From Plasmodiophora brassicae (Eukaryota), in NCBI GenBank assembly GCA_036867785.1, contig CP145411.1:1798001-1855648 (forward strand): DNA of 57,648 nucleotides. Direction: 5' to 3'. A program made the translations under genes and the position numbers. Each line of letters starts with the position of its first letter. Within the stretch, counting starts at the first letter, position 1. Shown piece after piece: positions 7,715 to 56,896 of the stretch. Below the pieces are notes generated by a model. The model saw nothing but the letters and a program-made list of their open reading frames with translations, had not been told where the DNA came from and did not search any database.

Positions 7715-10025
7715 ATGGACGACACGGCGACGGCGACGACAACGACGGCGTCGACGACGATCGACGTCTACTGTCGGATCCGGCCGACGCGTCGGGCGTC
7801 GCGGTCGTACGCGTGCGACGAGTCGGGGACGCGCGTCATCCTGTCGGTGCCGCGCCGGGCGGGCGACGGGTACGTCAACAACCAGCGCGACACGTTCGAG
7901 TTCCCGTTCGCGGGCGTGTTCGACCAGGACGCCACCCAGGAGGACGTGTTCGCGCGTGTCGCCGCCCCCGTCGTCGACAGCGTCCTCGACGGGTACAACG
8001 GCACCATCTTCGCGTACGGGCAGACCGGGTCCGGCAAGACGTACACGATCACGGGCGGCGCCCGCGAGTACGACGAGCGCGGCATCATCCCGCGGTCGCT
8101 GGCCCGGATCTTCGCCCACGCCGACCGCCACGCCAGCGACAACGCGTTCACCGTCCGCATCCAGTACCTGGAGATCTACAACAACGCGGTCAGTGTGTGG
8201 GGCTGTGTGTGTGTGTTGTCTCTGCGCCTGACGCGCCGTCGACGTAGGGGTACAACCTGCTGGACGGCGACCGGGTCCCCGACCGGTACGACAACATGAC
8301 CAAGGTGGTGCTGCGCGAGGACGAGGACGGGCGCGTCCAGTACACGGGCCTGGACCCGATCACGACGACGTCGCTGGAGGACGCCCTGAACCTGCTGTTC
8401 TACGGCGACCTGAACCGGATCGTGGAGAAGACGCCGATGAACGACGGGTCGTCCCGGTCGCACTGCATCTTCATGGTGCAGGTCGAGTCGCGGTCGCAGC
8501 GCACCGGCCTGATCCGGCGGTCGCGCCTCAACCTGGTCGACCTGGCCGGCAGCGAGCGGGTCGCCAAGACGCAGGTGGACGGCAAGATCCTGACCGAGGC
8601 CCGCCGCATCAACCTGTCGCTGCACTACCTCGAGCAGGTCATCGTGGCGCTGCACGAGCAGGCGCAGGGCAGCGCCCGCGTCCACGTCCCGTACCGCAAC
8701 TCGATGATCACGACGATCCTCAAGGACAGCCTGGGCGGCAACTGCCGCACGGTCATGGTCGCCACGGTCAACGTCGAGCAGGCCCAGGTCGACGAGTCCA
8801 TCTCGACGTGCCGGTTCGCGCAGCGCGTCGCCATGATCGTCAACGACGCCAAAGTCAACGAGGAGCTGGACCCGGCCATCGTCATCGCCCGCCTGAAGCG
8901 ACGCGTCCAGGAGCTCGAGGCGCAGCTGGCCGTCGCCCGGCCCGGCGACGACGCCGACGGCGAGCCGGCCCCGTTCGACGACAGCGCCCGGGCGCGCTGC
9001 GACACGCTCGTCGACGAGTTCGTCAACAGCGCCGCCGCCGACGACGACGAGCAGGCGTCGGTGACGATCCTGTCGGCCCTGGCCGGCGACCGCATCGCCT
9101 ACTGCCTGCGACGGTTGAAGACGCTGGTCGGCGGCGCCCAGCAGCAACAGCGGGCGGCGTCGGCCGGGGACGCTCCCGCCAACCCGCACGCCATCGTGCG
9201 CCTGAAGAAGGTCATCGAGGACCGCGACAATGAGATCGTACGTGCGCGGCACCCGCTCGTGCCCACCACCATGCAGCCGTCCGGGTTCCTGACGCTGTGT
9301 GCAGGCGATCCTGGTTGGCATGCTGAAGGCGAAGGAGGCGAACGGCGTCGCGAACGTCAGGGCGGCGGTCGCGTCGACCGGCGCGTCGCTGACGCCGGCG
9401 CAGGCGGACGAGATCGTGGAGCGACGCCGGGCGTTCGACGAGTACCGGACGCAGGGCGACTCCGAGACGAGGAAGCAGATGCAGGCGGGCGTCGAGGACC
9501 TGCAGGCCAAGATCGTCGCGGCCAAGTCGCTGGGCGAGCGGTTGAACGCGACGATGAAGACGATCGACACGCTGAAGGACCAGCTGCAGCAGCAGCGGAT
9601 GCGGGCGTCGGTCCGCCAGATCACCGACGGGGAACCGTCGCACGACGACGCCAACGAGATCGCCGATCTGGAACGACGCCTGGACGGGGAGCGGCACGCG
9701 TACGGCACGCTGGTCGCGTCGTTGCGCCAGGCCAAGAAGGAGATCGAGCACGTGCAGCACTGGATCTCCAAGCTGCGCGTTCGCATGCAGAAGGAGTTCG
9801 ACAGGATGTGGGTGGCAACGCGCGCGCCCGCGCGTCCGCCCTAACGCGCGCGTGTTCAGGTGGGACGACGGCGCGAAACGCAACCCTGCAAGGACGGCGG
9901 TCGGTGACGCCCCGCGACGATTGGTGGCCACGGGAGACGCCGCCGTTGACGCCGACATCGCCAGGTTCTATCAGGCGAGCCGCTCGGCGACGCCGGCAAG
10001 GTCGCAGCCGACGACCAGCACCTAG
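7715..10025 (+). CDS. KIF6: Kinesin-9 family motor, KIF6-like (4 exons)
   Basis: P-loop GYNGTIFAYGQTGSGKTYT, SSRSH, LNLVDLAGSER, INLSLHYLEQVIVALHE, coiled-coil stalk, and C-terminal TGDAAVDADIARFYQA motif typical of KIF6. Confidence 0.9.
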
Positions 10026-10395
10026 CGCACCATATACGAGTCCTATATCGCCCGCTGCGACTGACCGGCCGTTGTGCCTGCCTGACGAAGCGACCGTCTT
10101 GTCAAAGACGACTGCCAATGGCACAGGCGGTCGTTTCCACATTCGTCACCCTGCTGCAACACGAGCATACCAGCCTGTTTCGGATGGGGGGTCCGTCGAC
10201 AACGGCCGTGTCGTCGGGCGTGCAACCGCTCATCCGCTGGCCCAGGCACTGACTGGCCCATAATGTCGAGTGGAAGTAGCGTTCAACCGCGTCATTATTA
10301 TAGGTCGAGGGGGTGCATCGTTGGACACTCCTCTGTTGAACGGGCGTTTTAGCGAGACACGAGCGCTGAAAGCAAACCGTGTGGCAACCTGACCG

Positions 10396-17840: not shown

Positions 17841-20505
17841 CTACCGTGGGCCACCGGGCAGCTTCGGCGCTGCTAGACGGCGGCGGACGGGGCGGTCGGC
17901 GTCGGCGTCGAAATAGATGTGCACGTTGCCGGGTTTGTCCCGGAACTCGGACCGCCCCAACCGCGGTGATCGTCCCGTGTCGGATGGCGGATGCTTGTCG
18001 CTGCCCAAATGGTGGTCGACGCGATGACCTTGCTGATGAGCGATCCTGTGCGAGCCAGTGCTGCCTTCGTCGTCGACGCCGCCGTCGTCGCCGTCGACCT
18101 TGCGGCGGCGCGCACCAATGGCGATCTGTTCGTGTTGGAGGAGCAGGAACTCAGTGAAGGCCATCCAGTTACGATACGCGCGGTCGCGCGCCATTGGCCA
18201 CCCTTGGTATGCCTGGTCGTCATCATCGTCGGCATGCTCGGCGCTCCCGCGCAGCAGGTCGCATTGCACACCCCGACTGTTATCCATGACGCACCTCCAG
18301 GCTCTCTCCAGTTGCAGCTCGACCTCGTCGACCATATCATCGTCGTCTTCTGACGCAACCACATCGTCATATTCGTCATCGTACTCCTCCTCCGCTTCGT
18401 TTTCGTCGCCCGACGTTGTCGTCACCCCCGCTCGAGGGGCCGGTCGACCTCCTGGCGCGCCCCCATCCAGGACGTCATCTTCCTCTGGTTCAGCACCCGC
18501 CGACGAAGCCATGGACGACGAATCGTCATGGAACGCGTCAAAGTCGTCCCGTGCTGGCAACTGGAACGCCGCCTGGTCGTCGTTGTCGTCGGCCGCGTCT
18601 GTTTTCTGTCGGGTCGTGATGTCCTTCCGGCCACCCGCACCAGCGACCGTGTCGTTGCCGGCGACCACGCGCTCCTCGGTCTGCGCTGTCGCATGCTGAT
18701 CCGGACGCGCCGCCTTGTACCCCGAGCGCAGAGCAGAGGCAACGAGCACGGCGCCCCCCGCTCGTAGCAGTTCCGAGGACGATAGCGATCGGCGGTGTGG
18801 GCGCCGCTGGCCCCGTTGCGGCTCAGGTGACCTGGCCTGGTGCTTCGTCGCTGTGACGACGCCGGCGCGCCGCGTCTGCTCGGAACGCCAACCCGGTTCA
18901 TGCTGTGGCGGCGCGCCGTCGTCGCCCGCGAATGGTGGCAACAGGTCCTTCCCCGCCAGCACCTGGACGTGTTCCGGCTGCGCCTGCCCGCTGACCTGCA
19001 CCGCTGTGATGAACGGGGCGCCGTCGCCCTTCGGGTCCATTCCGGGCCCGCCCTTGTTCGCAACGTGGAACTCGGTCCGCATGGCGCCGATCATCGTGTC
19101 CGGCAGCAGGGAGAAGTCGCTCATCGTCTTACGGTTCTTGGGCGTCTCCGTGGCCGTGACCTCCCCCGACACGGCTCGTCGGGAGGAGCGCCGCCGCCGC
19201 CGGTTCTGTGCCTCGATGGACGCGAGCTGGCGAGCGCGACGCGCGATCTCCTCCTCCGATGTCAGCAGGTGCGTCGAGAACGAGTCCGCCAGCACCTCCT
19301 CCGTCTTCTGCCATTCCGTCTTCTCGGCCTCGAACGCGCTCTTCAGCGCGTTCACCTCGCGCTGACTGCGACACACACACACCGCGTTGTCAGATCGCAG
19401 GACGGGGCGGGCGCCGCGATACACCGATTACTGTTCCGCCTTCAGCTGGTCGATCGTCTGATGGAGCGCGGCGATCTGCGAGCGGAGGCCCTCCTCGCCG
19501 GCGACGAGCGCTCTGGAGACGGACGACGCCGACAGCGAATTGTCGAGGCGCTGCTCCAGGCTGGCGATGCGGGCGCGTAACGCGTGCACCTCGACCTGGT
19601 GCTCGTCGGCGGAAAGACCCTTCTCCTCCTTCAGCGACTTCATCTGCTCGCGCATCTCCTTCACCTGCCGGTGCAGGCGATCGGCCAGCTCGGCCTGCTT
19701 CAGGCACTCCGCCCTGCTGCTGTCCAGGTCGTCGTTCAGCAGCTGGACCTGCAGGATTGGCAGGTCAGGATTAGGGCCCAGCCGTGCCATACGCGCCGTC
19801 CCCTACCTGCATATCGAACGTCTTGCCGCGGTGCACGAGCTTCGCGTTGGCTTCCTGGAGCAGCCGGTTCCATTCGGCGGCCTCCAGGCGACCGTCGCCG
19901 TCGAACCGGATCCGGGACCCTTTGCGCTTCAGGTCGGGTTTGTAGTCGGCCGGGTACGTGGCCAGCGACACGCCGTGCAATTGCCTGGAGTCCAGGACGC
20001 GGTCCTTGTCGTACTGGGCGATCAGGGCCTTCAGCGCCAGGACCTGGTCGTAGTACTGGCGGCGCTGGTCGCAGAGCAGCGCGTTGCGCCTGTCGATCTG
20101 CGCCGTCATGTACAATTCTTGCTGGTCGCGTTCGGCAACGACGGCCTCGAGCTCCACGACGTACTGGCGGGTGTCCTGCACCTCGCGCTCCATGTCGGCG
20201 ACGCGCTGGTCGCATCGGTGCATGAGCGCGGCACAGTCCTGCAGCGTCCACAGCCGGGAGACGACATCGTCGAACAGCGACGCGATCGCCTGCGTCAGGT
20301 GGACCTGCGGGGCCTGGGCGCCGTCCAGCGATGACGCGGATAGCAGGGCGTCGCTGACGGCATTCAGGTCCAGCAGGTCGGGCAGGACCGGCAGACGTTC
20401 GTTGGTGGTGCTGCCTGTCGCCCCCTCCACCGTCGTTGTCCGATCGTCGACGTCGTAGTCGTCATCGACATGGCCAGGTACCGGCCCGATGGACGTCGTC
20501 ATCAC
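17841..20505 (-). CDS. Hypothetical coiled-coil protein with acidic low-complexity C-terminus (~3 exons)
   Basis: Three consecutive minus-strand ORFs (19771-20505, 19428-19790, 17841-19424) with heptad-rich E/Q/R/L composition, joined by plausible short introns. Confidence 0.65.
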
Positions 20506-20708
20506 GACAGCGGCGGTGCCTTGCCCATGATTAGACGTCGGTGCCGTTTATTACAGCGGTCGTGGGGCGGGTACCGTGTGCGACCTGAAACGATACGTCG
20601 ACGTCACGTACCACGCCTGACCGTCGTGACGTCATGCCTTCCGCTGTGGAACGTACGCTGGCGTATCGGAATGACGTCAGTTCGCCAACAAAACGTCACT
20701 GGCCACCG

Positions 20709-21192
20709 ATGCGCTCCCTCAGCAGCATTGTCGTCGTGCTGGCCGCGATCGGCATCGTGTTGTCGGTTGTGGTGCCAAGAGGTCACGCGGCCTGGCTTCG
20801 CACGGAATCAGGCGGGGTCGATGATCACCACGAAGACGGGGAGAAAGTACGGCCCATCAGGATGCGCACGCGCACGCAATTGGTCTGCTAAACGCGCGCG
20901 CTGCCTGCTACAGGACATACATCGGCACAGTTTCAAGCACGACGACTCGGACAGTGCGACGACGACCGGGAACGTCCAGGTGACAGGTAACGGGAACGCG
21001 CGCCCGCCCCCCGCCGTCCGTTGCTGAACCTCTCGACCTGTAGGCACGGACACGCTGAACGGGAACTACTTTCACGAGTACGGCCACGACGACGAAGACG
21101 ACGACCTCGACATGGGCGGCGATGACGACGGCGCGCACCACCACCACCACCACGGGCTGTTCGGCCTGTTCGGCCACGACGACCACTTCTAG
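20709..21192 (+). CDS. Small secreted His/Asp-rich protein (~120 aa, 3 exons)
   Basis: Signal peptide MRSLSSIVVVLAAIGIVLSVVVPRGHA. Introns at 20847-20913 and ~20987-21043 splice in frame to ...EYGHDDEDDDLDMGGDDDGAHHHHHHGLFGLFGHDDHF*. Confidence 0.7.
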
Positions 21193-21365
21193 GCGCCGCC
21201 CTATGATATTTGCTGCGCGCGTCCCGTATCATACATTTGGGAAACGACCTGTTCGCATGTGCGTTCCTGTTGCGCGCTGTGGGCGTTGTTGCACGGCCAG
21301 GTCGCCTCGCCCCCCGCCATGGCGGAGTCCGCCGTCGGAGTCGCCCTGATCATTGGCGCCGTGCG

Positions 21366-23789
21366 ATGCGCCTGGCCGCAGCCTGGCGCCCTTCGAGGCG
21401 CAACTGTACGTTGGCTGCCTGTCGCACGCGCGTTAACACCTTGACGTCTGCGCTCGGTGCTCCTCGTCGCTGCTCCCACGCAGCGCAGCACGACGCACCG
21501 GTCCGACGCGGGGCGCCTCGGCCGTCTCCGCCGACGGCTGCGTTCTTTCAGCATCCATCTGTCCCGCTGGCGATTCAGGTCCTGCGTCATCCCGGCACGG
21601 ATCCTCGTCAGGCATGGGCCGTGTTCGAACGCGTCGTCGACGGGCGATCCCCGGTCGCCGTCCCGTTCTTCATGCGCATGCTGCAATTCTGCCAGCGCGC
21701 CCTGCCGTCCAAGGCCGCGGAGGTCATGCGCGCCGCGATCGCCCAGCGCGTCCCGGTGGACGAGGCCCTGTTCTGCACGTTCCTCGCAGCGTGCAAGCGT
21801 GCGGTTCCTGCGCTGGACCGCGACGCCCTCGACCTGTACCAGCGCGCTGGACCCATCACCCATAACGTTCTGTGCAGCCTTGCTGGGGTTTGCCGGGCGG
21901 CCCACAATCCCGAGTCGGCGCTGCCGCTCGTGTCGGACGCTGCCGAACACGGCGTACAGATCAGCGATGTTCTGCTATCCGTGTTCGCCGCGTGCTGTGC
22001 CGAAGCGCACAGCGCGCTGGGTGCCGCGACGGCCGCGCGTATCCTGGGCCTGATTCGATCCAACCGGATCGCCCCGTACCGGAACCATCAGCTGTACGCC
22101 AACCTGGCCAAGGCGTTCCTGTCGCAGAAACGATTCGACGACGCCGTCGCCATGATCCCGTTCCTGGATTCCATCGGCATGCCGCCGACTCAGCACCTGT
22201 TCGGGATGGTCATTGGCGCGCTCGTCAACGACGGCGCCGTCGCCCCAGCGATGTCCGTCTTTCATTCGATGCGAGCGCGATGCGTCTCGTTGCTGCCCGA
22301 AGTGTTTACCAGCCTTGTGACGTCGTGCGGCAATGGCGGCCACCTCGACCCGCTTCAGACGCTGTACGCGTACGCCGTCGACGCCGATCAGGCCGTACTG
22401 CAAGACGCCTATATCGTCTCTGCATTCATCGTGGCATTCAGCCGGTGCGGCCGCGTCGACATCGCCCAAGTCGTGTTCCGGCGGGTGCCGGGCCCAAGTG
22501 CGGCCGTGTCCAGCGCCATGGTCAGCGCGCTGACCAGCGCCGAGCGTATCGACGACGCCCTGGACGTGTTCCAGGCGATGGTTGAACGCGGCACGGCGCC
22601 CCCCGGCCGAACGTTCGCCGGCCTTGTCACTGGCTGTGCCCGGCATTCCACGCTCGGCCCGCTTCAGGCATTGTACCAGCATGCGACCCGCTCGAACCCG
22701 GCGCTCCTGGACGACACGTTCATTCTGAGTGCATTCGTGTACGCGTTCGGCTGCTGGTCGGACCTGGCCACGGTGCGGTCGTTGCACGAGTACGCGGCGG
22801 GTCGCCCGATCACGATCGACGAGGCCGTCGTCAGTGCGTTCGTCAGCGCGTACGCCCGGTGCGGGCAGCTCCACGAGGCGGATCGTCTGCTGCTGCGCTC
22901 CGCACCGGGCCTGTCTGGGTACAACGCCATGATCGCGGCATACGGTCGCTGCGGGATGCTGTCCGATGCGGTGGCCACGTTCGCCCGCCTGAAGCAGTCG
23001 GGTCTGAAACCCGACGCGCGAACGCTGACGTCCCTGCTGTCCGCCTGTGCACACGCCGCGGATTCGCAACGCGCCCAGGCGCTGATGTCCGAATTCGAAT
23101 CGCAATGGAAGGTCCAGCTCGACGGTTGGCACCGGAACTGCCTGATCGACCTGCGATGCAGGCTGGGCGATCTGGACCTGGCCGAGCAGATGGCCAGGAC
23201 GTCGCCGACGAAGAACATCGTGGCCTGGCTGCCGATACTGTCGGCCTGTCTGACGCTCGGCGACCTGGGCCGGGCCGAGCGCTGCTTCGCTGCCCTGCTC
23301 CTGTTGCCAGTGTCTCGGCCGCACCTGCTGACCGCGTATGACATCATGGCCGACATCTATGCCGCCGCTGGTCGCCAGGCCGACGTGGACCGCCTGCGGG
23401 CCGACCTGCATGCCAGGGGCCTATCCAGCGTTCCTAGTCGCACGTCGCTGGTGCTCGCCAGCCGGACTGTGCAATTCCGATGCGGTGACGATGATGATGA
23501 TGATGGAGGTGACGTTCCCAGCCTCCTAGCGCAGGACCTGTCAAGCCGGGGCACCGACGCCGCTGCCTTGTTCCGGTGCCACAGCGAGCTCAGGGCAGTC
23601 TCGTACGGTCTGGAGGCGGTTCCGCCCGGCGACCCAATCTACGCGACCAAGACCACGCGCGTGTCCGCTCAGTGCCACGATGCGATCGGGCGCGCCTCGG
23701 CTCTGTACCGCCGCGAGATATCGATCCAGGAGGCGACCAGGTATCACCGGTTCCGCAACGGGCAATGCTCCTGCCAGGGGTATCGGTAG
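21366..23789 (+). CDS. Intronless PPR protein with E and DYW-like deaminase domain, predicted mitochondrial
   Basis: Arg-rich presequence; PPR motifs such as YNAMIAAYGRCGMLSDAVATFARLKQSGLKPDARTLTSLLSACAH; E motif IVAWLPILSAC..AYDIMADIYAAAGR; DYW-like end HSELRAVSYGL..TKTTRVSAQCHDAI..YHRFRNGQCSCQGYR*. Confidence 0.9.
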   Translation: MRLAAAWRPSRRNCTLAACRTRVNTLTSALGAPRRCSHAAQHDAPVRRGAPRPSPPTAAFFQHPSVPLAIQVLRHPGTDPRQAWAVFERVVDGRSPVAVPFFMRMLQFCQRALPSKAAEVMRAAIAQRVPVDEALFCTFLAACKRAVPALDRDALDLYQRAGPITHNVLCSLAGVCRAAHNPESALPLVSDAAEHGVQISDVLLSVFAACCAEAHSALGAATAARILGLIRSNRIAPYRNHQLYANLAKAFLSQKRFDDAVAMIPFLDSIGMPPTQHLFGMVIGALVNDGAVAPAMSVFHSMRARCVSLLPEVFTSLVTSCGNGGHLDPLQTLYAYAVDADQAVLQDAYIVSAFIVAFSRCGRVDIAQVVFRRVPGPSAAVSSAMVSALTSAERIDDALDVFQAMVERGTAPPGRTFAGLVTGCARHSTLGPLQALYQHATRSNPALLDDTFILSAFVYAFGCWSDLATVRSLHEYAAGRPITIDEAVVSAFVSAYARCGQLHEADRLLLRSAPGLSGYNAMIAAYGRCGMLSDAVATFARLKQSGLKPDARTLTSLLSACAHAADSQRAQALMSEFESQWKVQLDGWHRNCLIDLRCRLGDLDLAEQMARTSPTKNIVAWLPILSACLTLGDLGRAERCFAALLLLPVSRPHLLTAYDIMADIYAAAGRQADVDRLRADLHARGLSSVPSRTSLVLASRTVQFRCGDDDDDDGGDVPSLLAQDLSSRGTDAAALFRCHSELRAVSYGLEAVPPGDPIYATKTTRVSAQCHDAIGRASALYRREISIQEATRYHRFRNGQCSCQGYR

Positions 23790-24025
23790 CGCCCTCTATT
23801 TATCGTACACACAGCGAACGATGTGTGCTCGACCTACGACGAGAACGAGGACCTAGTAGCGTCGTAGTCGGCATGATCGTCTGTCTAGATGACAGGGCGC
23901 AGACCAACGCGTCTAGCAGATATCGTGCGCGTTTACGTATACGGGTATCGCCGAGATCAGGTGCAAATTGCTTGACGCTCGGCAGCACTCGATGGTATTG
24001 GACGCGACGGTTTCCGCCGAGGTTG

Positions 24026-24611
24026 TCACTGTGCGCTTCCCAGGCCAATCACGCCGCACGCGACCCGACCTGTACGAACGTCGTCAGACACGTTGCCTAG
24101 GCAGATCGAGGAGGATCAAGGGGGTCGCATGTACCTCCGGCGTTGCCGGTCGTCTTCGACAGTTCGTGGCCGCCCTTACCGAGGTCATCGACGCCTGCAG
24201 ACGACACGTCAGGTTTGGCCTGTTGTGGACACGCAGCAACAATACGGTACCCTCGTGAACGACGAACGCGCGTCCAACAATGGAGTATTGGCCCGTCAGC
24301 GACAGCTGGCGATCGACGATATCGACGACGGCGACGCCTTCGGCATTGGCGGTGATGTTGCCAAGGTCGCCGACGTGCCGCTCGGTGTCGGCGGGCGCGC
24401 CATGCGTCTTGCCGAACGGATTGTAGTGCCCGCCGGTCGATGCGCACCCTTGCGTCGTGTCGCCGTGCTCATGGACGTGGAAGCCGTGCTGGCCGGGCGT
24501 CAGCCCCTCGATCTTGCCCGTCACCTTCACCGGGTCACCGTCCGATCCCTGCGACAGGGTCACCAACCCATGGACGCCTTCGCCGCGGATCACACAGACG
24601 CCCTTGCGCAT
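24026..24611 (-). CDS. SOD1: Cu/Zn superoxide dismutase (3 exons)
   Basis: [78 protein letters not shown]. Confidence 0.97.
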
Positions 24612-25056
24612 CGTTCAACGACCTGCGGTCCACCCCCTCCCGGCTTCGCCGAACCAATCCGCGCTTGTCCGCCGTCCCGCTGCCCAAACCCGCGCGGACA
24701 ACTCGCGGTCCGGACCGTCCGCTGCCCGTGCGCTGTCCCGCGCAGACGCAGTCGCGCGTTGCTCGGCGCGCATTGCTCAGCAGACACACGGCACTGCGCG
24801 CAGGCCGCCGCTTCCTTCGGGCGGTCGACGCATGACGGGAGGTCGTTCGGCAGACCCCCGACGACGGTATGCATCCGACACGCGGGTGTCTCCTCCTCGC
24901 CTGCTGCGACATGCTCCGTCGACTCGGGCGTCATCGCCCTTTTGTGGGTGCGCACTGCGCTTGCGGTACCCGATGCGGTCCACTGAACGAATGCTGTCTC
25001 AAGAGCGCGCACGTTGCATTTACCCGTCGGGCGTGGCTGTGCTATCGACGTCGGTG

Positions 25057-26423
25057 TCATACGAATGCCGAGCTCGTGATGAACAGGACGACGGATAGCC
25101 AGGCGGCCGCGGTCGCTGCTACAGCTGCTGTAGGTGACAGGGCGGACGCCGACGACGCTGGAGGCGTTTCATAGCGGATTGGTCGCGTTCGCTGACGGTA
25201 ACTGTCTAGTACGTGGCGGGCCGCCAACGTCGTCGTCACTCCAACGAGTATGGCTGCTCGACGACGCAGGAAGGGTGTTGCGCGCGGGGAATCGCGGCCA
25301 TCGTCCGGCGGGCAGGTTTTGGTGCCGACCTGTGGCCAACGGCGACCGACAGCAATCCAGGCGGCGACGACACCGACCCCCAGAACATGTGCGCGATCAA
25401 CTTTCGACGGTTGCGGTCCACCAGCAGCACTCCCTGGCGTTGACGTTGACGCCGTCGGGTCCGCGTGGGCACGTGGCTTCCGCCGCCCAGCCCCCGTTGT
25501 TGGGCCCTCGACCTGCTGCCGTCCTCCTGCTTTTCGACGGAGCGGTTGCTTTGAACAAGGACCCGCCGGAATGTTGGGCCGTGGGCAACGAACGACGGCT
25601 CCCTCGGTCATGATCGGGTTGGGCACGACGCGGGATCGCTGCTTTCGACTATGCGGTACCCAAATCGTGAACTCGGTCCGGACCGGCATGTAGGGCGACC
25701 GCGCTCGCATGCGGATCTCGACGTCACTGCCGGACGCGTACACAATGTCGACCTGGACGCGCACGGCGCCCTGGCGCTGCAGCGCCCTGATCTCGTTCTC
25801 GACGGACGCCTGGGGCCCCTGATTCGAGGCCGGGTGCTGCGGGATCAGATTCAGGCCCGAGTCGCACCTGGTGGCGTCCGTCAACGACAACATCGAGTAC
25901 AGGCACACGCAGCGCAATCGTACTGTTTGTGGGAATGCATGATGATATGACCGGCGTGATAACCGGGGACCGGATGCCGAACGTCGGTCCAGGCGAGTAA
26001 TTTCGCAGCGTACTTCTGCCGGTTCGTTCGCAACCGGGTAGGCGCACGTGCCTGGGTGATCGATAACGACTCCATAGCGGACGTTAACGACACTTCGGGA
26101 TAGACGCCGTGCACACGAACAACGCGGGCGCGGGCGTCGGTCTCGTATGTGAACCCGTTCGTCAACGTCGTACGCTTGCGACCCTCGACAATCTGGTCAT
26201 CTGGGTACAGGTCGTTGCCATTCAGGATGGCGTCGTTCAAGCGCTGCCGCAGGGCTCGCAGGTCGCGTTTGTCATCCGGGAGACGCAGGAAATCCTGCAT
26301 ATACTTTGGCAGCTCGCCTACAATGGGGTCGTCGCCCACACACTCAACGACCACTGCCGCTGCTAGGGCCAGCCACAGTACAGCGAAGGCATACACAGCG
26401 GCCGACGAGGGGCGCGGCGCCAT
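25057..26423 (-). CDS. Secreted DNA/RNA non-specific endonuclease (bacterial-toxin type) with three-hydrophobic-segment C-terminal tail (2 exons)
   Basis: Signal peptide, then FTYETDARARV. After removing a ~56-nt intron (~25867-25922): YHAGHIIMHSHKQCDSGLNLIPQHPASNQGPQASVENEIR..VRVQVDIVY, the GH..N.PQ..N..E pattern of Endonuclease_NS_2-type nucleases. Confidence 0.7.
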
Positions 26424-35179: not shown

Positions 35180-37486
35180 TCAAAGTTTATGCCCGCCGGC
35201 GTCGAGCGCCTCGCCCGTTCCGTCTGTCCCGGTGGCCTTGACCGTATTGGTGGTGTCGGTGTGCCCGGGTGCTGTGCCCGATTTCTTCTTGTAGACGCTG
35301 AGCGCCAGCACGATATTGGTCCCCGTGTTCCCGTGGTACACGGCAATGGCTTTGTGGGCGAACAGCGCCAGCACGGCAGATACGACAGAGAACAGCGTCA
35401 GCATCGCCGTCGTCAGCATGCGCGCATCCGCCTGCTCATTCGGGATGTTGTTGGCGATGACGGCAATCAGAGCGGTCAGCAACGTTGTCGAGTACACGCA
35501 GACGCCGATCTGTTTGGCGTCGTTGACCTCTGGGACATCATCGTCCGACGTCTTCACCGCCAGGAACACACCGGCCAAGAACAGCAACGCCTTGTACACG
35601 ACCAACAACGTCGTGACCGTCGGCATCTGCTTCGACGTACACGTCGTCACGTACGGGGTCAGCACGCTCGAGAACGGGTCCAGCGGATCGATTCGCGACG
35701 GCAACGTCACGTCCGCAATGACGATCGGATCAGACGCGAACCACACCGCCAAAACGATTAGGTCGACGACCGGTGCAACGCCAATGACGACGAACATCTG
35801 CCACGGCGGCATCGCGTCGCTATCGATGGTACCCGATTCGCGAATCACGATCCGGACCAGACGTGTGAGCTTGGCGATGTACGCCGACGCAGCCAGCGAT
35901 AGCGCCAGGCAGCAGGTCGCCACACGCGCTTGGCACACAGATCCAGATGATGGCACCGCCATCAGCACAGCGAACACGCACGCCAGTAGGCATGCGACGC
36001 AGATGATATCGTTGACAGCGGGCGCTGACCCCTGGAACAGCACCGTGGTTCGGTACTTGGCGTTGAGCGCCATTGCCGCCAGAACGACAGCGAAAACGAC
36101 CCCGGACATGACGAGCACGGCGGTTTGCGACGACGACGACGCCTGCAGTGGCCGCGACGTCTGCCTAGCGATGGCAACCGGCACCGTCTGGGCACGTGTG
36201 AATCCCCAGTCCACGGCATCGGAGAAGTTGGCTTGCGACTGGTCCACCGTCCCGATCGCTTGCCAAACCAGCTGCCCAGTCACCGCATCCCGACGCCGAT
36301 TGACGATCGTGTACAACGCGATCCGGTTGCCCGTTAACGCGCTCAGCGCGACACGGCCAGTAGCCCCGACCATCGTCGTCTGTCGGATCGCCGACAGCAC
36401 CGACGCCGGCGTCCACGCCTTGCCCGCCTGCTGCAGATTGTGCAATGCGGTGAACGCCATCACGACGCTGTCGTACGTGTAGATCAGCGGGATCGATGGC
36501 GATGCCAGGCCCCATGTGTTCGCCGCCGACGCTGCATGGGCTGAGGACCACGCGTGCTGCAACGCGACGAATTGTGGTGATGTCGCATCGGTGAACGCGA
36601 CTACGCCGACGGCGCCTTCGGGGATGGCATCGGTGTCGGTGGCGCCGACCCAGCCGTCCGTACCGATCCAGGCGTACTGCGGCCCGGTCATGCCGGCGGA
36701 CGCGGCCGCCGTGAACAGGTTGCCCCGGGCGGCTGAGGAGACGAGCGCGACGATGATGCGACGGCCGGTGGATTGCAATTTGACGAGCTGTTCGACGGGA
36801 TGCGTTGCAGGGTCGAATGTGACGGTGGCGTTGATGTTGAGGTGAAGCTTGGCGCAGGACGTGACGAAGGAGGCGAGCTGGGCGGCCCCGTCGGGGTCGC
36901 TAGACGATATAACGACGACCTGCGACCAGGCGAACGTCGAGGCAACGCGGGCGAGCGCCATGGCCTGGACGTCGATGCCCGGGATGATACGTGAGAACGT
37001 CGGGTACGTCGCTGCGGATAACGACGGGTCGGTCGCCGTTGGCGATAGGATCGGGACGTCCATCTGCGCCAGCCAGAACCCGAGGGCGATGGCGTCCAGC
37101 GACGACGATGGACCGATAACGGCTTGGACAGGCGAGGGCTCCAGCACGGACATGTTCCGTCCCAGGACGGTGCAGAACATGGCCGTCGTCGCCGACACCT
37201 GGCTGCCCCGCGAACTCTGCCATCTGACGCGAGCGGTCCGCCCGGGCAGAACGCTGCTGTCGGCGTTGATCGCGTCGACGGCCAGGCGGACGGCGGGGAC
37301 GAACGCGTCGGCGCCGAAATCGAGAATAACGGCCAGGTCGACGGTCGGCAGCGACGGCGTGCAAGGATACGTCGGGCAGCATGTGTACCCGGCGTACGCG
37401 CACGGATCCGAGTCGCACGTGATCACGGGCGACCCAGCCGCCAGGGCGAATGCGCCCAGCAGCAGCAGCACAATCGTCGTCGGCAT
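35180..37486 (-). CDS. Class C (GABA-B-like) GPCR: Venus flytrap/ANF domain plus 7tm_3; apparently intronless
   Basis: LAVDAINADSSVLPG; AVIGPSSS; PILSPTATDPSLS..YPTFSRIIP; YKALLFLAGVFLAVKT..NDAKQIGVCVY. Confidence 0.88.
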   Translation of the reverse strand: MPTTIVLLLLGAFALAAGSPVITCDSDPCAYAGYTCCPTYPCTPSLPTVDLAVILDFGADAFVPAVRLAVDAINADSSVLPGRTARVRWQSSRGSQVSATTAMFCTVLGRNMSVLEPSPVQAVIGPSSSLDAIALGFWLAQMDVPILSPTATDPSLSAATYPTFSRIIPGIDVQAMALARVASTFAWSQVVVISSSDPDGAAQLASFVTSCAKLHLNINATVTFDPATHPVEQLVKLQSTGRRIIVALVSSAARGNLFTAAASAGMTGPQYAWIGTDGWVGATDTDAIPEGAVGVVAFTDATSPQFVALQHAWSSAHAASAANTWGLASPSIPLIYTYDSVVMAFTALHNLQQAGKAWTPASVLSAIRQTTMVGATGRVALSALTGNRIALYTIVNRRRDAVTGQLVWQAIGTVDQSQANFSDAVDWGFTRAQTVPVAIARQTSRPLQASSSSQTAVLVMSGVVFAVVLAAMALNAKYRTTVLFQGSAPAVNDIICVACLLACVFAVLMAVPSSGSVCQARVATCCLALSLAASAYIAKLTRLVRIVIRESGTIDSDAMPPWQMFVVIGVAPVVDLIVLAVWFASDPIVIADVTLPSRIDPLDPFSSVLTPYVTTCTSKQMPTVTTLLVVYKALLFLAGVFLAVKTSDDDVPEVNDAKQIGVCVYSTTLLTALIAVIANNIPNEQADARMLTTAMLTLFSVVSAVLALFAHKAIAVYHGNTGTNIVLALSVYKKKSGTAPGHTDTTNTVKATGTDGTGEALDAGGHKL

Positions 37487-51870: not shown

Positions 51871-52457
51871 ACGCTTTCGTTATTGAGCAGCAACCGCCAG
51901 TCTCACGTCACACGAGGCAGCCGCACGCGCTCACCGGGCTGGCCGTACACTGTAACTGCATGCGACATCGGGTGCCGGTTGCTGCACTCTGCAGCAAAGC
52001 GCGCGACGGCACTCCGAGTCGCACCTTCTCGTTTCTGCCCTCCGTGGCAGGCAGCGGCGAATGCGATCGTGAAATCGGCAGTGGCCGTATCGATTCGCGA
52101 AGCAATTCAATATCGACGCGACTACTCAATACCCTTGTATTGCTTGCAAATGCTTAGGAGCTAGCTACCGTACAGGTACTTGATTCAGATAGTTTCGTAC
52201 AAGAGTTCAAACAACAATGCAATGTACCTTGACTCAAACTGCCGCACCGATATCTCGAGCAATTGTTGACTGTAATGTTTCAGCAGTCATGTTTCCTCTG
52301 GATTCAATACAAACCATTGTCGCTTGTACGACGGCATTGTTGTGGATGACTGATGCCGGAACCGTAACGATGTTGTTTGGAACGACCTCGTGAAGCGCCT
52401 GCCACATCGTATCTGCGCTTCCAGGGTTATACCACCCATTTCCTACACAATGACAAG

Positions 52458-55400
52458 TCAGTTACAAAACCAAGAGAAGAACTGCTGATAAATACGGTTG
52501 GGATAAAATCTGGGAAGAACTCGATCGTACGGCTTGTCGCAGGCGTGAAGTTTGTACCATCGGCCAACCAGAATTAAGCAAATCGAATCCGCCTCATGTG
52601 CCAACCGATGCGACCAGCCTAGATCGAGCTTGACGAGGTTGCTTATGTCACCCATGTAGAGGCCAGCCTCTTCGAATTCGACAACAAACTTCGAGTTGCA
52701 TGTCTTGTACGACTCGTCAACGTCCTGCTTCCGAAACATACATCTACCTGAAATGATTTCAAACCAATTGTCGTGAACCAAAATGGCAAGCTCAGTACCG
52801 ATGTCAGCACGAGAGCTGGATTGAACAGACTTTGGAAGGCAGACTGATCCGAACGACGATTTGTGCAACGAGCAGAACAGATCGAAGCTTCCAAGATGAC
52901 GAAACATGCCAGAGAATGAATTCAGACCTCTTGGATTCCCAGACGCCTGCGCATAAAGCGCCACCAAACGCCGATACCGGACCCTCCAAGAATGATTCTT
53001 GGTAGAGGCCCAGTGCGTATTTGAATACAGATGAACATGCAACCAACACCGCATCGTATCGTTAAGTTCTACAGACGACAGCGGAGGGCGCAGATCGATG
53101 GGTAGGGTCGACAGATGCGCGGTAGGAATTTCATCCATGCCTGTGGCATTACCAAACATCAAGGGGCAGTCATTCCTCAGCGAATATTGTCTGTAGAAGT
53201 CGCTGCGCAGGAACGTAGCAGCACAGATCAGCTGCATGTAGGACGCGATGTTGACCGTTTCAGAGACGGTCGCTTGTAGAACGTCTTTCATGAAGTGCAG
53301 CCATCGCTCCATTGGCCAGACCCAAATAAGACCGACCAGCGGACCCCATCGCTTGATTATTTCCGGCAAATGAACAAGAGAATGCATCTGACACGAAAAC
53401 ATCAGAACAGTATGAAATCGGTGAAGCCGTGAAGCCGTTTGTGAAACGTACCGATATGGTCATCAGCCCGCAGGGCATGACAGATTCTAGATGCGCCAGA
53501 GCGTCGAGAAAGTTAGAAAACACACGATCTAGGTTGCTTCTAACAAAAGCCTTCGAAAGCATTGATGACAGCGCATCGAGAAAACGAAACATCGCTATCC
53601 AGAACGAAGCAATGGGAGAGTCTGGACGGGTTCGAACCAGCACCCGCGAAACAACAGACCACCAGATCCCAATGCCAACGTCGCCGAGCCAAACAAGGGA
53701 GTCAGCTGCTTTCCACCAGGAACTCACCAAAGGGTTCCTTGGTTTCGTTGAACCACCGGTTCGCGATACCCACGTAAGGTTCTCCAAAACATGATCGATT
53801 TCAACAGCCAGGGAGGACCATTTTACACCAGCCTTCACTTTAGCGGGATAGGCAGTGTTATTGGGCCAAGCCCACACAGGACTGGGACAGTCTCCACGAC
53901 CGAACAGTTTCTCAGTCTGTGCAAACGGTGTTACAGTTGGCCGTGCAGTCGAGCAGGCCCGCTTACCTCAGGATTGTAATATGATGAACCCGATCCGTAG
54001 AAGTCGATCGCTTGAAAAAGCGGGCGAACAGCACGCATGCAGATGGCGTGCATAGGATCGTGCACGTAATTGGACGCGTGTCCAAAACTGCACAGAAGGC
54101 CAACGGAGTAGACGTCATAACCCGGGTGACGGTATCCACCACGGTCACCGACGTTCCTCGACGTCATGCGACGCCGAACTTCGTCGTCGTCTTTGCAGCG
54201 CACATCATCACGTAGCTGATCAAGTGAACGCACGTCGCTCGGCCTTTTATCGGAAGGCAATGCGTCGAGATACTCCAGCATGTCTTCATATTTTTTACAG
54301 AACTATATCAGCAAGCATAAATCTTCAGTGATCAACCCGTACTTAGCAACGCTACCAGTATACTGACATGGCGTTGGACATCCGATGACGCGAACATAAA
54401 TGCCCCATGGTACTTGACAGATCGGTTTGCTGAACGGCCTCTGATGCTGCATTTATTGCAAGCATCCTGCTTGCCGTTCTGGCTAGTACAGCTCGTGTGA
54501 CAGAGCTCGATATAATCCATTGGCTGATGGAGGCGGTTAATACGGGTATTGCAGCATACAAACTGTTATATGTGGACAACATACCATCACTGCCGAGATG
54601 CATCGAACATGCTTGACTCTCTTCTCGACTGCGTCGAACACTGGGAATCCATAGTAGTTCATCAAATTCAGCTCAAAAGCGTCCAGTCTCTGCACTGCAC
54701 GTCGATGACCCTTAGCAACGTTTGGGATCAATGCCACAGGGGACATAAGGCCCTGATTGCAGCGAACCGAAGCCGGTAACCCCATCACAATTTGGACAAG
54801 AGGAACAACTGACTTAGATCCCCAGCTGAGAAGATCTGCCCCGTCGATCATGGATGACAACGAGAGAGGGAACTCGCCGTTCTCGAGGCAAGACTTCATA
54901 AACGGCGAATACACCGTATAAAAGAAGTCTCCATCCGTCCAGTCTTGCATATACGTACTTCTCAAAGGAGCCGATGCGATTTCTCGATGGCGGTCGAGTT
55001 CGTCGTGGAGCATCTTGCAGAACGTGTTCGACCGGAACAGACACTGCAGAAACAAAATTCGCGAAAAGTAGATACACGGCTCTGACTGACGACAGCAGGC
55101 CTCTGACGATGGCACATCTGCGCCATCGGGCCACACATGACCACCGCAGCAGGCCTTGTACCTGATAAAGGGTGACGTCACCCCCATATCCAGAAGGTGT
55201 CTGCGTAACACACTGATAGATTCGGCTGTAGCATTCAGGTCCACATCCAGAGCATCAGTAAAGTCGTCACTTGGTACCCCTTTGGCCTCACAAATATCAC
55301 GAATCTACCAAATGACCATGAGAACTTACATTCGTGAACAAAGCGGTGTGTTATTACCAGTGCATTTCGACGAATACGTGACTCCTTAGCACGGTTGGAA

Positions 55401-55981
55401 GCAATCTTCAGCATATTATTGAGGGAGTTGTACGATCCCTTTGACCGCATCACCTCATCGAAATTGTCGAGAATTGTCGGATCGATGTTCGGTGCCTCGA
55501 GTTCCTCCAGCTTCTTGCTGATTTCGGCCACCAGGAAATCGGAAAGCCTGAGCTCATTCATGTACTCTTTGCAGTTAGTTTCGCGCCACTCGTTGAATTC
55601 CTGAACATTGGAACGGGCATTGTTCTCCAACAGCGCCGGGCGGATATCAAACGGCTCCACAGAAACATTGTCTCCATGCCTCGTTACAGTCATCGTCGGT
55701 CGACGTTGGCGCCGCCGACGGTGCTCATCGAAGAGCCGGAGAAACGGATTGTGCATGACGTCGACTGAAGGATTGCGCCGTTCGCTCAGAGCTCGACGAG
55801 CAATCTCAAGAAAACGGTTGCCGGCGGCGACGTTGTTCCGCTGGCGATCAGAATCGGCAGCTGCGCGACGACGCTGGTATTCGCGCACATGCTCAAAGAA
55901 GATATTCACGTCCCGAGAAGCATCACCGCCCGGATGCTCTGGTGAGTCGCTACTCGATCCCAGACTGCGTGGTCGACTCAT
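52458..55981 (-). CDS. CACTA transposase (Transposase_21/Tnp2 plus DUF4218-like), at least 6 exons; 3' end may extend
   Basis: MQDWTDG; LSLSSMIDGAD..SVVPLV..GLPASVR; PMDYIEL..ACNKC; VHDPMH; MHSLVHLPEIIKRWGP..WVWPMERW. Five GT-AG phase-0 introns join the ORFs without stops. Confidence 0.88.
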
Positions 55982-56896
55982 TCACAGACGCACACCAATG
56001 ACGCCGCGACTCACGCACTTCCGAAAACGATACTTATGTTGTGAAAATCGCAATGTGGCCAGTCTGGAGCAGAATGCCCCGAATTGACCCACAGTGGTAG
56101 CAATTCCTGCAGAGTCACCAAACACACCGTACGTGTGACCGAATGAAGGGATCTCTATAACTGTATGACAGGTTGACCGACCACCATTCTGGAGGCCGCG
56201 TTGCCCAATTGACCCCGATTTGACCCCGATGGGTTCCCTGTGTTCGCCGATCGTTGCAATCGGTCGCGCGCGCCGCTGTCGTGCACCATGCGTTGATGGC
56301 GGACCGAGCAACCAAAGGTCTTCTCGCCGATGTCCCCGTCGGCCTGTCGAGCGGCACCTGCCTGCCCTGCAGGTCTTCCAGCAGGCAGGTGGCGCCCAGT
56401 GTCCGTTGCCGTTGATCGACATGCGCACGCCTATCTGCCGTCGACCACCCGCCGCCGGCGTATCGCCTCACCCAGATCACTACAAGCAGATTAGGTCGAC
56501 ACGCGCGAACGCCGGCCCTGCAGGTCGTCCTGGCGTCAGGCGGCGCCGGACGGCATCCTTTGCTGAAGTGGCCGGCGGTCGACAGCGCCGACGTCGTCCC
56601 TGCATGCGTGTCAAGCATGGCAGGTCAGACCAGACGAGCGATGCAGGCGTTTCGGGTGTCGCAGCATGCACGTGAGGCAGGTGATTGCGCTCGACTCCAA
56701 GCAAACGCGGTTCAGTACGTGTCAGAGCGGTCCTACTTCATTATCCCTGAGTTGTACTGCAGCGTGCGGCCTGGCAAGAAGGCGTGAGGTACAACTTCTC
56801 AACAACGCAAACGAATACAACGTCTTTTACGGATCATATGTTCCACCATTCTTTCTACTGCATGGCCAGGCAGATGAACTCGACGATGGACAAGCT

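Follow-up and report, generated by a model that had tools for sequence, protein, structure and literature searches.

Among the known systems closest to the gene considered here are the PLS-E-DYW factors that catalyse organellar C-to-U editing in land plants, in which a tract of pentatricopeptide repeats (PPR) ending in the motifs P2, L2 and S2 is followed by E1, E2 and a DYW domain. In OTP86 the catalytic zinc (Zn1) is held by H892, C920 and C923, with E894 as the catalytic base, and a second, structural zinc (Zn2) is bound by H924, H947, C954 and C956; R895 hydrogen-bonds C920, and the R895A protein is inactive (PMC7611903). The same source describes D958 as bonding K928 and W960 as stacking on H924, with both D958A and W960A reducing activity, and places before the HxE motif an autoinhibitory gating domain (H837–G891) whose β-finger (875–890), when removed, markedly lowers editing (PMC7611903). 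DYW proteins that are likewise non-plant and presumably mitochondrial occur in Naegleria, Acrasis, Physarum, Acanthamoeba, Malawimonas and the paradinids; in Paradinida, which belong to the Rhizaria, PPR-DYW transcripts co-occur with mitochondrial C-to-U editing (PMC11946409), and a 2026 survey gives 31 DYW domains for Rhizaria (PMC13386178). The present text concerns a nuclear gene of this type from the clubroot parasite Plasmodiophora brassicae (Phytomyxea, Rhizaria), found on the forward strand of a stretch of 57,648 nucleotides (contig CP145411.1, positions 1,798,001 to 1,855,648, assembly GCA_036867785.1), the whole of which is called the window below. Its product, referred to as the window protein, is probably a mitochondrial, sequence-specific RNA binder that carries a dead deaminase domain and belongs to a family specific to this lineage.

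An earlier note on this DNA, made from the letters alone, had taken the gene for a non-plant homologue of the plant-type PPR-E-DYW editing factors and had proposed a profile search for the DYW domain. That search gave a match to Pfam PF14432 (DYW_deaminase) of 56.6 bits (cut-off 24; E=2.3e-15) over residues 733–806 and profile positions 19–92 of 93, and the homology is borne out by PPR_2 (86.4 bits, cut-off 30), by PPR (76.5 bits, cut-off 25) and by an unbroken alignment to a PPR-DYW structure. The Pfam E_motif stayed at 23.7 bits, under its cut-off of 27.3; residues 618–688 nonetheless form two helical hairpins in the structure model and align unbroken to E1 and E2 of 9kfx_A, a synthetic PPR-DYW protein that was the top phmmer match among the Protein Data Bank (PDB) chains (E=3.2e-74, residues 471–806 on 260–611). 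This alignment runs through S1, P2, L2, S2, E1, E2 and DYW and sets "rvsaqch" of the window protein opposite "rvcgdch"; the natural DYW domains 7w86_A (3.8e-12) and 7o4e_A, which is OTP86 (1.1e-09), also matched. The order P2 (35 residues), L2 (36 residues) and S2 (31–32 residues) is found with a single gap relative to 9kfx_A and becomes less regular further upstream. Motif finding with self-built hidden Markov models (HMMs) recovered helix-A cores only. Canonical PPR-code pairs occur in the last three motifs only, namely P2 (N/D, U), L2 (T/D) and S2 (N/N, C or U). In the alignment the window protein follows the order of motifs of the land-plant factors (OTP86, 7o4e; 9kfx), and it differs from them in upstream motifs that have no canonical code pairs and in a family-specific N-terminal part of 240 residues. 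Its first 40 residues contain eight arginines and neither aspartate nor glutamate, and import into the mitochondrion is probably achieved through this Arg-rich N-terminus.

The note had further read the HxE motif as intact (HSE), the CxxC motif as SAQC with a first codon one base away from a cysteine codon, and the C-terminus as GYR in place of DYW with a last codon one base away from tryptophan, and the codons agree with it on all three (Table 1). Equivalences with OTP86, drawn from alignments A1 and A2 and from a 171-sequence MAFFT alignment, show that the alterations go beyond these two. Shared with the land-plant factors are HxE, the second cysteine of CxxC, K762 and the four Zn2 ligands, and R765 is also kept; the differences comprise the serine in place of the first Zn1 cysteine, a leucine (L742) directly after HSE, Q769, G775, a PS in place of the PG box, a gating region of 30 residues and the GYR end. 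Among the 20 P. brassicae paralogues described below, in which the gating region, counted from the conserved GD to HSE, spans 30–49 residues, the window protein has the shortest; the median for the sequences from outside P. brassicae is 47. The DYW:KP variants, candidate U-to-C editors of hornworts and ferns, have a KP-type N-terminal box and keep their zinc ligands. The window protein is not one of them, as its domain starts with VPSRTS, a degenerate form of the VPG box of its family, and has lost a zinc ligand.

How unusual these residues are was assessed with a 118-residue DYW query against 1.84 billion protein representatives, which returned 1143 matches at E<=1e-3 and 42 at E<=1e-10; residues were counted by column in the best 150 of the 1143, 20 of them from P. 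brassicae and 130 from elsewhere. Among these 150 representatives the first CxxC position is cysteine in 147, the exceptions being the window protein (Ser), P0093 (Ser; by eye a repetitive non-DYW protein) and P0168 (Arg; a 120-residue fragment), and no other true DYW domain in the set has serine there. The residue after HxE is lysine or arginine in 139, the position of Gly775 is lysine in 137, and the columns of H794, C801 and C803 are each conserved in 149. At the terminus, D is found in 130 and W in 127, and R in one. HxE and CxxC are both intact in 126 of the 130 representatives from elsewhere versus 11 of the 20 from P. brassicae.

These counts bear on the possibility that the domain is still an active C-to-U (or other) deaminase, with its zinc on His739, Cys770 and either Ser767 or water, and with a short gating region that removes autoinhibition. 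Such a reading would draw on the retention of HxE, the second cysteine, K762 and R765, on a fold that is predicted with confidence, and on the autoinhibitory role described for the gating domain of OTP86 (PMC7611903). It is nevertheless unlikely, given that the window protein is changed at once at positions where, in OTP86, R895A is inactive and D958A, W960A and loss of the β-finger impair the enzyme (PMC7611903), and that no second true DYW domain of the best 150 representatives shares its serine.

The AlphaFold2 model, built from a 42-sequence alignment, has a mean pLDDT of 87.5 and a pTM of 0.75. It consists of about 19 helical hairpins over residues 55–683, followed by a deaminase-like α/β domain, and pLDDT falls below 50 only at residues 1–48 and 709–717. 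The gating region is modelled with the two helices 720–726 and 732–738 only and contains no β-hairpin. A Foldseek comparison gave the RNA-bound synthetic PPR-DYW structure 9kfx_A as the best PDB match (E=1.1e-25, 648 columns).

Three kinds of protein search brought together at least 20 distinct DYW paralogues from P. brassicae, all less than 50% identical in pairs and the window protein among them; the tally is a lower bound, taken from the best 150 of the 1143 matches. The named relatives are all Plasmodiophora brassicae proteins, for which the NCBI name is "DYW domain-containing protein", and the nearest is 38–43% identical to the window protein. A word-based search with residues 640–807 returned the query itself as the sole match. 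PF14432 is passed by all 21 relatives scanned (56.9–113.9 bits), and the 56.6 bits of the window protein are the family minimum. All paralogues have in common the N-terminal helical domain of about 240 residues, which is without counterpart in the plant matches: a phmmer search with residues 60–300 matched 50 of 184 collected proteins (paralogues at E values of 1e-93 to 1e-38), and these 50 comprise the P. brassicae family with its cluster variants, the environmental protein P0036 and, weakly, Balamuthia P0147, P0084 and P0133. Members of the same family that have no DYW domain also exist (PBRA_002491, PBRA_006474 and PBRA_002284). A tblastn search with 23 family proteins found no second member in the 57.6-kb window. 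Three paralogues (SPQ95180.1, SPQ98792.1 and SPQ93623.1) are labelled "(mitochondrion)" although they lie on contigs of 1.2–2.1 Mb and the mitochondrial DNA (mtDNA) measures 114.7 kb; this label looks like a quirk of the records and not like evidence of location.

A count of paralogues with an intact CxxC, which the earlier note had proposed, spoke for its reading and gave 11 of 20 that keep both HxE and CxxC: PBRA_008312, PBRA_006811, PBRA_006614, PBRA_007680, PBRA_004378, PBRA_006358, PBRA_007047, PBRA_008979, XXQ37716, XXQ37841 and XXQ37579. The other nine, the window protein included, have lost a catalytic residue. The window protein has lost the first cysteine (SAQC, Cys to Ser), and PBRA_007282 the second (CPAS, with a strain variant CPAG); in the remaining seven it is the glutamate of HxE that has changed, to aspartate in PBRA_001847 (HVD) and PBRA_003272 (HSD), to cysteine in PBRA_005679 (HAC), to threonine in PBRA_002194 (HCT), to valine in PBRA_002018 and PBRA_002268 (both HSV) and to proline in PBRA_002455 (HGP). 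The four Zn2 ligands, on the other hand, are kept in all 20. PBRA_007282 (P0029 / P0176) is variable in itself, the lost cysteine being serine in two variants and glycine in a third, and up to 44 of its 1001 residues differ between variants, many more than in most other paralogue pairs.

Twenty public runs from eight studies, none of them recorded as RNA, contain the stretch, and the contigs of four of them (X1, X9, X16 and X11, from four studies) were aligned on positions 19500–25500. In all four, RNA contigs cross the entire open reading frame (ORF) with no other letter and no gap. The contigs derive from spliced RNA, because those of the same runs skip canonical introns in the neighbouring genes; the short introns lie at 20985–21041, 24068–24132, 24194–24249 and 24947–25002, those seen near the gene measure 56–65 nt, and over the aligned region the contigs of the four runs have no canonical joint within the ORF. 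The gene is transcribed and intron-free, and its description in the note as intronless in an intron-rich region is upheld; for the retroposition that the note had offered as one origin, this lack of introns is the one observation. Three joints (21112–21760, TG..GG; 21784–23367, CG..CC; 22009–22102, CA..CA) were rejected as introns, as they are non-canonical and flanked by sides of only 20–23 letters, and are regarded as stray matches from contigs of paralogues or other organisms. A second allele, P0015, has seven amino-acid differences, none of them in the DYW core, and keeps Ser767, GYR and the frame. Since it carries both and the contigs of all four runs agree, an error of assembly is not the source of Ser767 or of the GYR end. 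A CGG-to-UGG edit in the final codon would restore the tryptophan; no contig shows such a change, contigs being prone to drop rare variants. A metagenome scan for relatives of P0001 produced 600 pattern matches, of which none was confirmed.

A rival reading sees in the gene an expressed yet functionless relic, a paralogue that is becoming a pseudogene after loss of catalysis. A PF14432 score below that of every relative scanned, the many changed positions among those tested in OTP86 and the seven differences between the two alleles could all be read in this way, and the GC-rich DNA makes long chance ORFs; a 478-residue frame on the opposite strand within the gene (21975–23411, −) is taken to be one. 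Yet the gene is old, with its nearest paralogue only 38–43% identical, and its 807 codons have stayed unbroken, the frame being kept in both alleles. None of the seven allelic differences falls in the DYW core, the model is confident outside the two short segments given above, and in eight other paralogues, too, the loss of a catalytic residue goes with retention of the Zn2 site, a pattern that points to a lasting role without catalysis. Because the structural Zn2 site is intact, the domain appears to be kept as a folded module and not to be decaying, and the relic is accordingly given a low probability.

The relationship to the plant proteins was followed with a tree inferred by maximum likelihood from 45 E2-DYW segments (152 columns, careful search), which is unrooted, has bootstrap values that are not fully settled and contains no heterolobosean, paradinid or fungal sequences. 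A branch of length 0.9 with a support of 100/100 divides it in two: the 20 P. brassicae domains fall together with P0205 and P0036, the latter from an environmental source, and the opposite part holds Balamuthia, two unnamed sequences and 20 domains of land plants (angiosperms, Ginkgo, a conifer, mosses and a liverwort). The window domain falls within the P. brassicae group with 95/90 when P0205 is included and 100/100 when P0036 is included, and its nearest DYW relative is PBRA_008312 (48% identity over 132 columns), but the branching inside the group is resolved almost nowhere. At least four changes between the dead and the intact state are needed on this tree, and a quick tree agrees. The topology fits a single origin followed by expansion within the lineage. 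P0036, a 662-residue metagenome protein (ENA/SRC), combines a canonical DYW domain (113.9 bits) with the N-terminal domain of the family (E=6.6e-33); it branches off between the plants and the P. brassicae sequences and may come from an unsampled relative of the plasmodiophorids.

A recent horizontal transfer from the host plant, with a product that possibly acts on host organelles, comes to mind for an organism that lives within plant cells, and the DYW genes of protists are usually ascribed to transfer from plants (PMC11946409, PMC13386178). When the DYW region of a canonical paralogue was used as query, the best matches outside the family were indeed land plants of all major groups, at 41–50% identity, along with one Balamuthia protein. 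The tree speaks against a recent transfer from a Brassica host, because the long branch with 100/100 support splits the family from all 20 land-plant domains; the identity is equally low to every plant group, the family has its own N-terminal domain, and the N-terminus, as read from its sequence, has no evident hydrophobic signal-peptide core. Such a transfer is therefore held to be very improbable; the tree is unrooted, and a transfer of ancient date may have occurred. The two plant proteins with the highest scores, P0025 (Carica papaya) and P0026 (Tetracentron sinense), carry the DYW region as two near-identical copies in tandem and have the look of duplicated or mis-assembled gene models, which explains their rank above the true relatives. 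In the accessible text of PMC11589745, Plasmodiophora appears as a source taxon of horizontal gene transfer only.

The gene is flanked by two others (Table 1). The stop codon of the upstream gene lies 173 nt before the ATG of the PPR-DYW gene, and the tail of its protein is acidic and His-rich (...HHHHHHGLFGLFGHDDHF). Downstream, a convergent gene encodes a Cu/Zn superoxide dismutase, whose first intron is skipped in the contigs of three of the four runs and whose second is skipped in all four; one X1 RNA contig spans this gene and the PPR-DYW gene, and the 3′ ends of the two seem to overlap or abut. Elsewhere in the window, a 768-residue ORF has the architecture of a class C G-protein-coupled receptor (GPCR), and another ORF opens partway through a kinesin motor domain, with profile positions 151–326 of 327, and must have further exons upstream; a 536-residue ORF that overlaps the latter on the opposite strand had no family match. 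The GC content is about 0.50–0.51 at 52001–56000 versus 0.57–0.69 in the rest of the window. Values of 0.50–0.69, like introns of 56–65 nt, would suit the small and compact genome of a protist.

Table 1. Features of the PPR-DYW gene and its surroundings (window positions), with the OTP86 residues that correspond to those of the window protein
Feature	Position	Strand	OTP86 residue, role and state in the window protein	Basis or remark
PPR-DYW coding sequence, 807 codons + TAG, no intron	21366..23789	+		ORF and contig cover
Arg-rich, acid-free N-terminus, presumed mitochondrial presequence, residues 1–48	21366..21509	+		composition, pLDDT <50
Family-specific N-terminal α-solenoid, about 6 helical hairpins, residues 55–240	21528..22085	+		phmmer, modelled helices
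PPR tract, residues 241–617, ending in P2 (516–550), L2 (551–586), S2 (587–617)	22086..23216	+		Pfam, 9kfx alignment, motif table, helices
E1 and E2 motifs, residues 618–688	23217..23429	+		9kfx_A alignment; helices 618–631, 634–645, 651–667, 671–683
DYW-type cytidine-deaminase-like domain, residues 689–807	23430..23786	+		PF14432, PDB matches, library matches
P690 S691, degenerate PG box	23433..23438	+		A1: VPSRTS vs VPGQTS, VPGRTT in paralogues
Gating region, residues 709–738, 30 residues, poly-Asp run	23490..23579	+		alignment, model (no β-finger)
H739 S740 E741 L742, HxE intact, next K/R replaced by Leu	23580..23591	+		codons CAC AGC GAG at 23580–23588
H739			H892, Zn1 ligand, kept
E741			E894, catalytic base, kept
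L742			R895, bonds C920, changed
K762			K915, Lys specific to DYW domains, in an ion pair with E894 in the inactive state, kept
S767, first residue of S767-A-Q-C770	23664..23666	+	C920, first Zn1 Cys, changed	codon read: TCC, one base from TGC
Q769			D922, stabilises the inactive state, changed
C770 and H771	23673..23678	+	C923, Zn1 ligand, kept; H924, Zn2 ligand, kept	codon read: TGC CAC
G775, in place of conserved Lys	23688..23690	+	K928, bonds D958, changed	alignment
H794, C801, C803	23745..23774	+	H947, C954 and C956, remaining Zn2 ligands, kept	invariant columns in A2
G805 Y806 R807 in place of D-Y-W	23778..23786	+	D958, bonds K928, changed to G805; W960, stacks on H924, changed to R807	GGG TAT CGG TAG at 23778–23789; CGG one base from TGG
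Contig spanning the ORF, X9 rec18	20560..23828
Contig spanning the ORF, X11 rec7	20344..23800
Contig spanning the ORF, X16 rec14	21354..23832
Contig spanning the ORF, X1 rec4	21042..24067
Upstream gene, 3′ end, with 57-nt GT..AG intron 20985–21041 and stop 21190–21192	20985..21192	+		contigs
Cu/Zn superoxide dismutase, convergent, introns 24068–24132 (65 nt) and 24194–24249 (56 nt)	23917..24714	-		Pfam Sod_Cu 139.3 bits
ORF of 768 residues, class C GPCR architecture	35180..37486	-		ANF_receptor 164.5 bits, 7tm_3 107.6 bits
ORF starting in a kinesin motor domain	8296..10263	+

Between the two roles that the earlier note had offered, mitochondrial editing machinery or a catalytically dead RNA-binding derivative, the second is favoured by the exchange of the zinc-binding cysteine for serine together with the other changes at positions tested in OTP86 and the short gating region. 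In the scheme that we prefer, the transcript would yield a protein whose Arg-rich N-terminus would direct it to the mitochondrion, and the approximately 19 helical hairpins would bind a specific organellar RNA, as the fold and the family suggest. The deaminase centre would be inactive, with serine in place of a Zn1 cysteine, leucine in place of the residue that hydrogen-bonds this cysteine and glycine for both partners of the Asp-Lys pair, and it would be further disabled by the exchange of the terminal tryptophan for arginine, the broken PG box and the absence of the β-finger part of the gating region. Such a non-catalytic family member might serve either as a site-recognition subunit that leans on an intact paralogue for deamination, or in a different RNA process, for instance stabilisation, splicing or cleavage. 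A complex prediction that paired the E2-DYW parts of the window protein (residues 650–807) and of the intact paralogue PBRA_008312 (residues 1062–1235) gave a score of 0.30 and a mark of 0.34, values that favour neither a contact nor its absence.

Recognition without own catalysis, beside competent members, is known from the plant PPR-E/E+ proteins that use DYW1 or DYW2 in trans, an interplay of E+, DYW1 and DYW2 that is mentioned in PMC7611903 and PMC11121751. P. brassicae has DYW-less members as well, but the plant E/E+ proteins are truncated, whereas the window protein keeps a full, predicted-folded and disabled DYW domain. It also stands apart from the paradinid proteins, for which the histidine, the glutamate and both cysteines are reported as conserved (PMC11946409), whereas the window protein has lost the first of the cysteines and nine of the 20 paralogues a catalytic residue. 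By extension, the mitochondria of plasmodiophorids might edit C to U with a divided machinery, in which dead and DYW-less members recognise the sites and intact ones deaminate; this is a tentative proposal, and we consider it doubtful as it stands. A dead zinc-deaminase fold that is kept for substrate binding next to an active paralogue is found in ADAT2/ADAT3 and in the double-domain APOBEC3 proteins. The HSV motif of two P. brassicae paralogues represents what we take to be the same Glu-to-Val change as in ADAT3; these enzymes are of another deaminase family and have other substrates, and the analogy is a lead only.

Several points weigh against the reading of a mitochondrial RNA binder with a dead deaminase domain. 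HxE, the second cysteine and K762 are kept, so residual or altered chemistry is possible. The upstream PPR motifs are without canonical pairs, and RNA binding through the code is accordingly putative. The RNA status of the four runs is inferred from the spliced neighbouring genes. Between strains, 0.9–1.1% of the amino acids of the window protein differ, as compared with 0.12–3.0% for intact and 0–4.4% for degenerate paralogues, and this comparison of protein variants found the two classes alike, with no signal of changed constraint. Finally, the literature, searched largely at the level of titles and abstracts, yielded no account of C-to-U editing in the mitochondria of plasmodiophorids and no paper that discusses Plasmodiophora DYW proteins. 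The mitochondrial genome of P. brassicae is 114,663 bp long and intron-rich, and in the accessible text of the paper that describes it RNA editing appears in the reference list only (PMC6823432).

DYW factors are few and patchy outside plants, and at least 20 of them make a large family for a non-plant. Nearly half of this family is without a catalytic residue and yet has kept the ligands of the structural zinc; the deaminase fold, it seems, has repeatedly been converted into a module without catalytic activity. If the machinery proved to be divided, an intracellular parasite of plants would have arrived at a division of labour of its own, apart from that between E+ proteins and DYW2 in angiosperms. 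The prediction is that C-to-U editing by the 11 intact members will be seen for the mitochondrial genome of the clubroot parasite; otherwise, the family has another RNA role. Either outcome would inform us about the spread and diversification of RNA editing, and about organelle expression in an uncultivable crop parasite.

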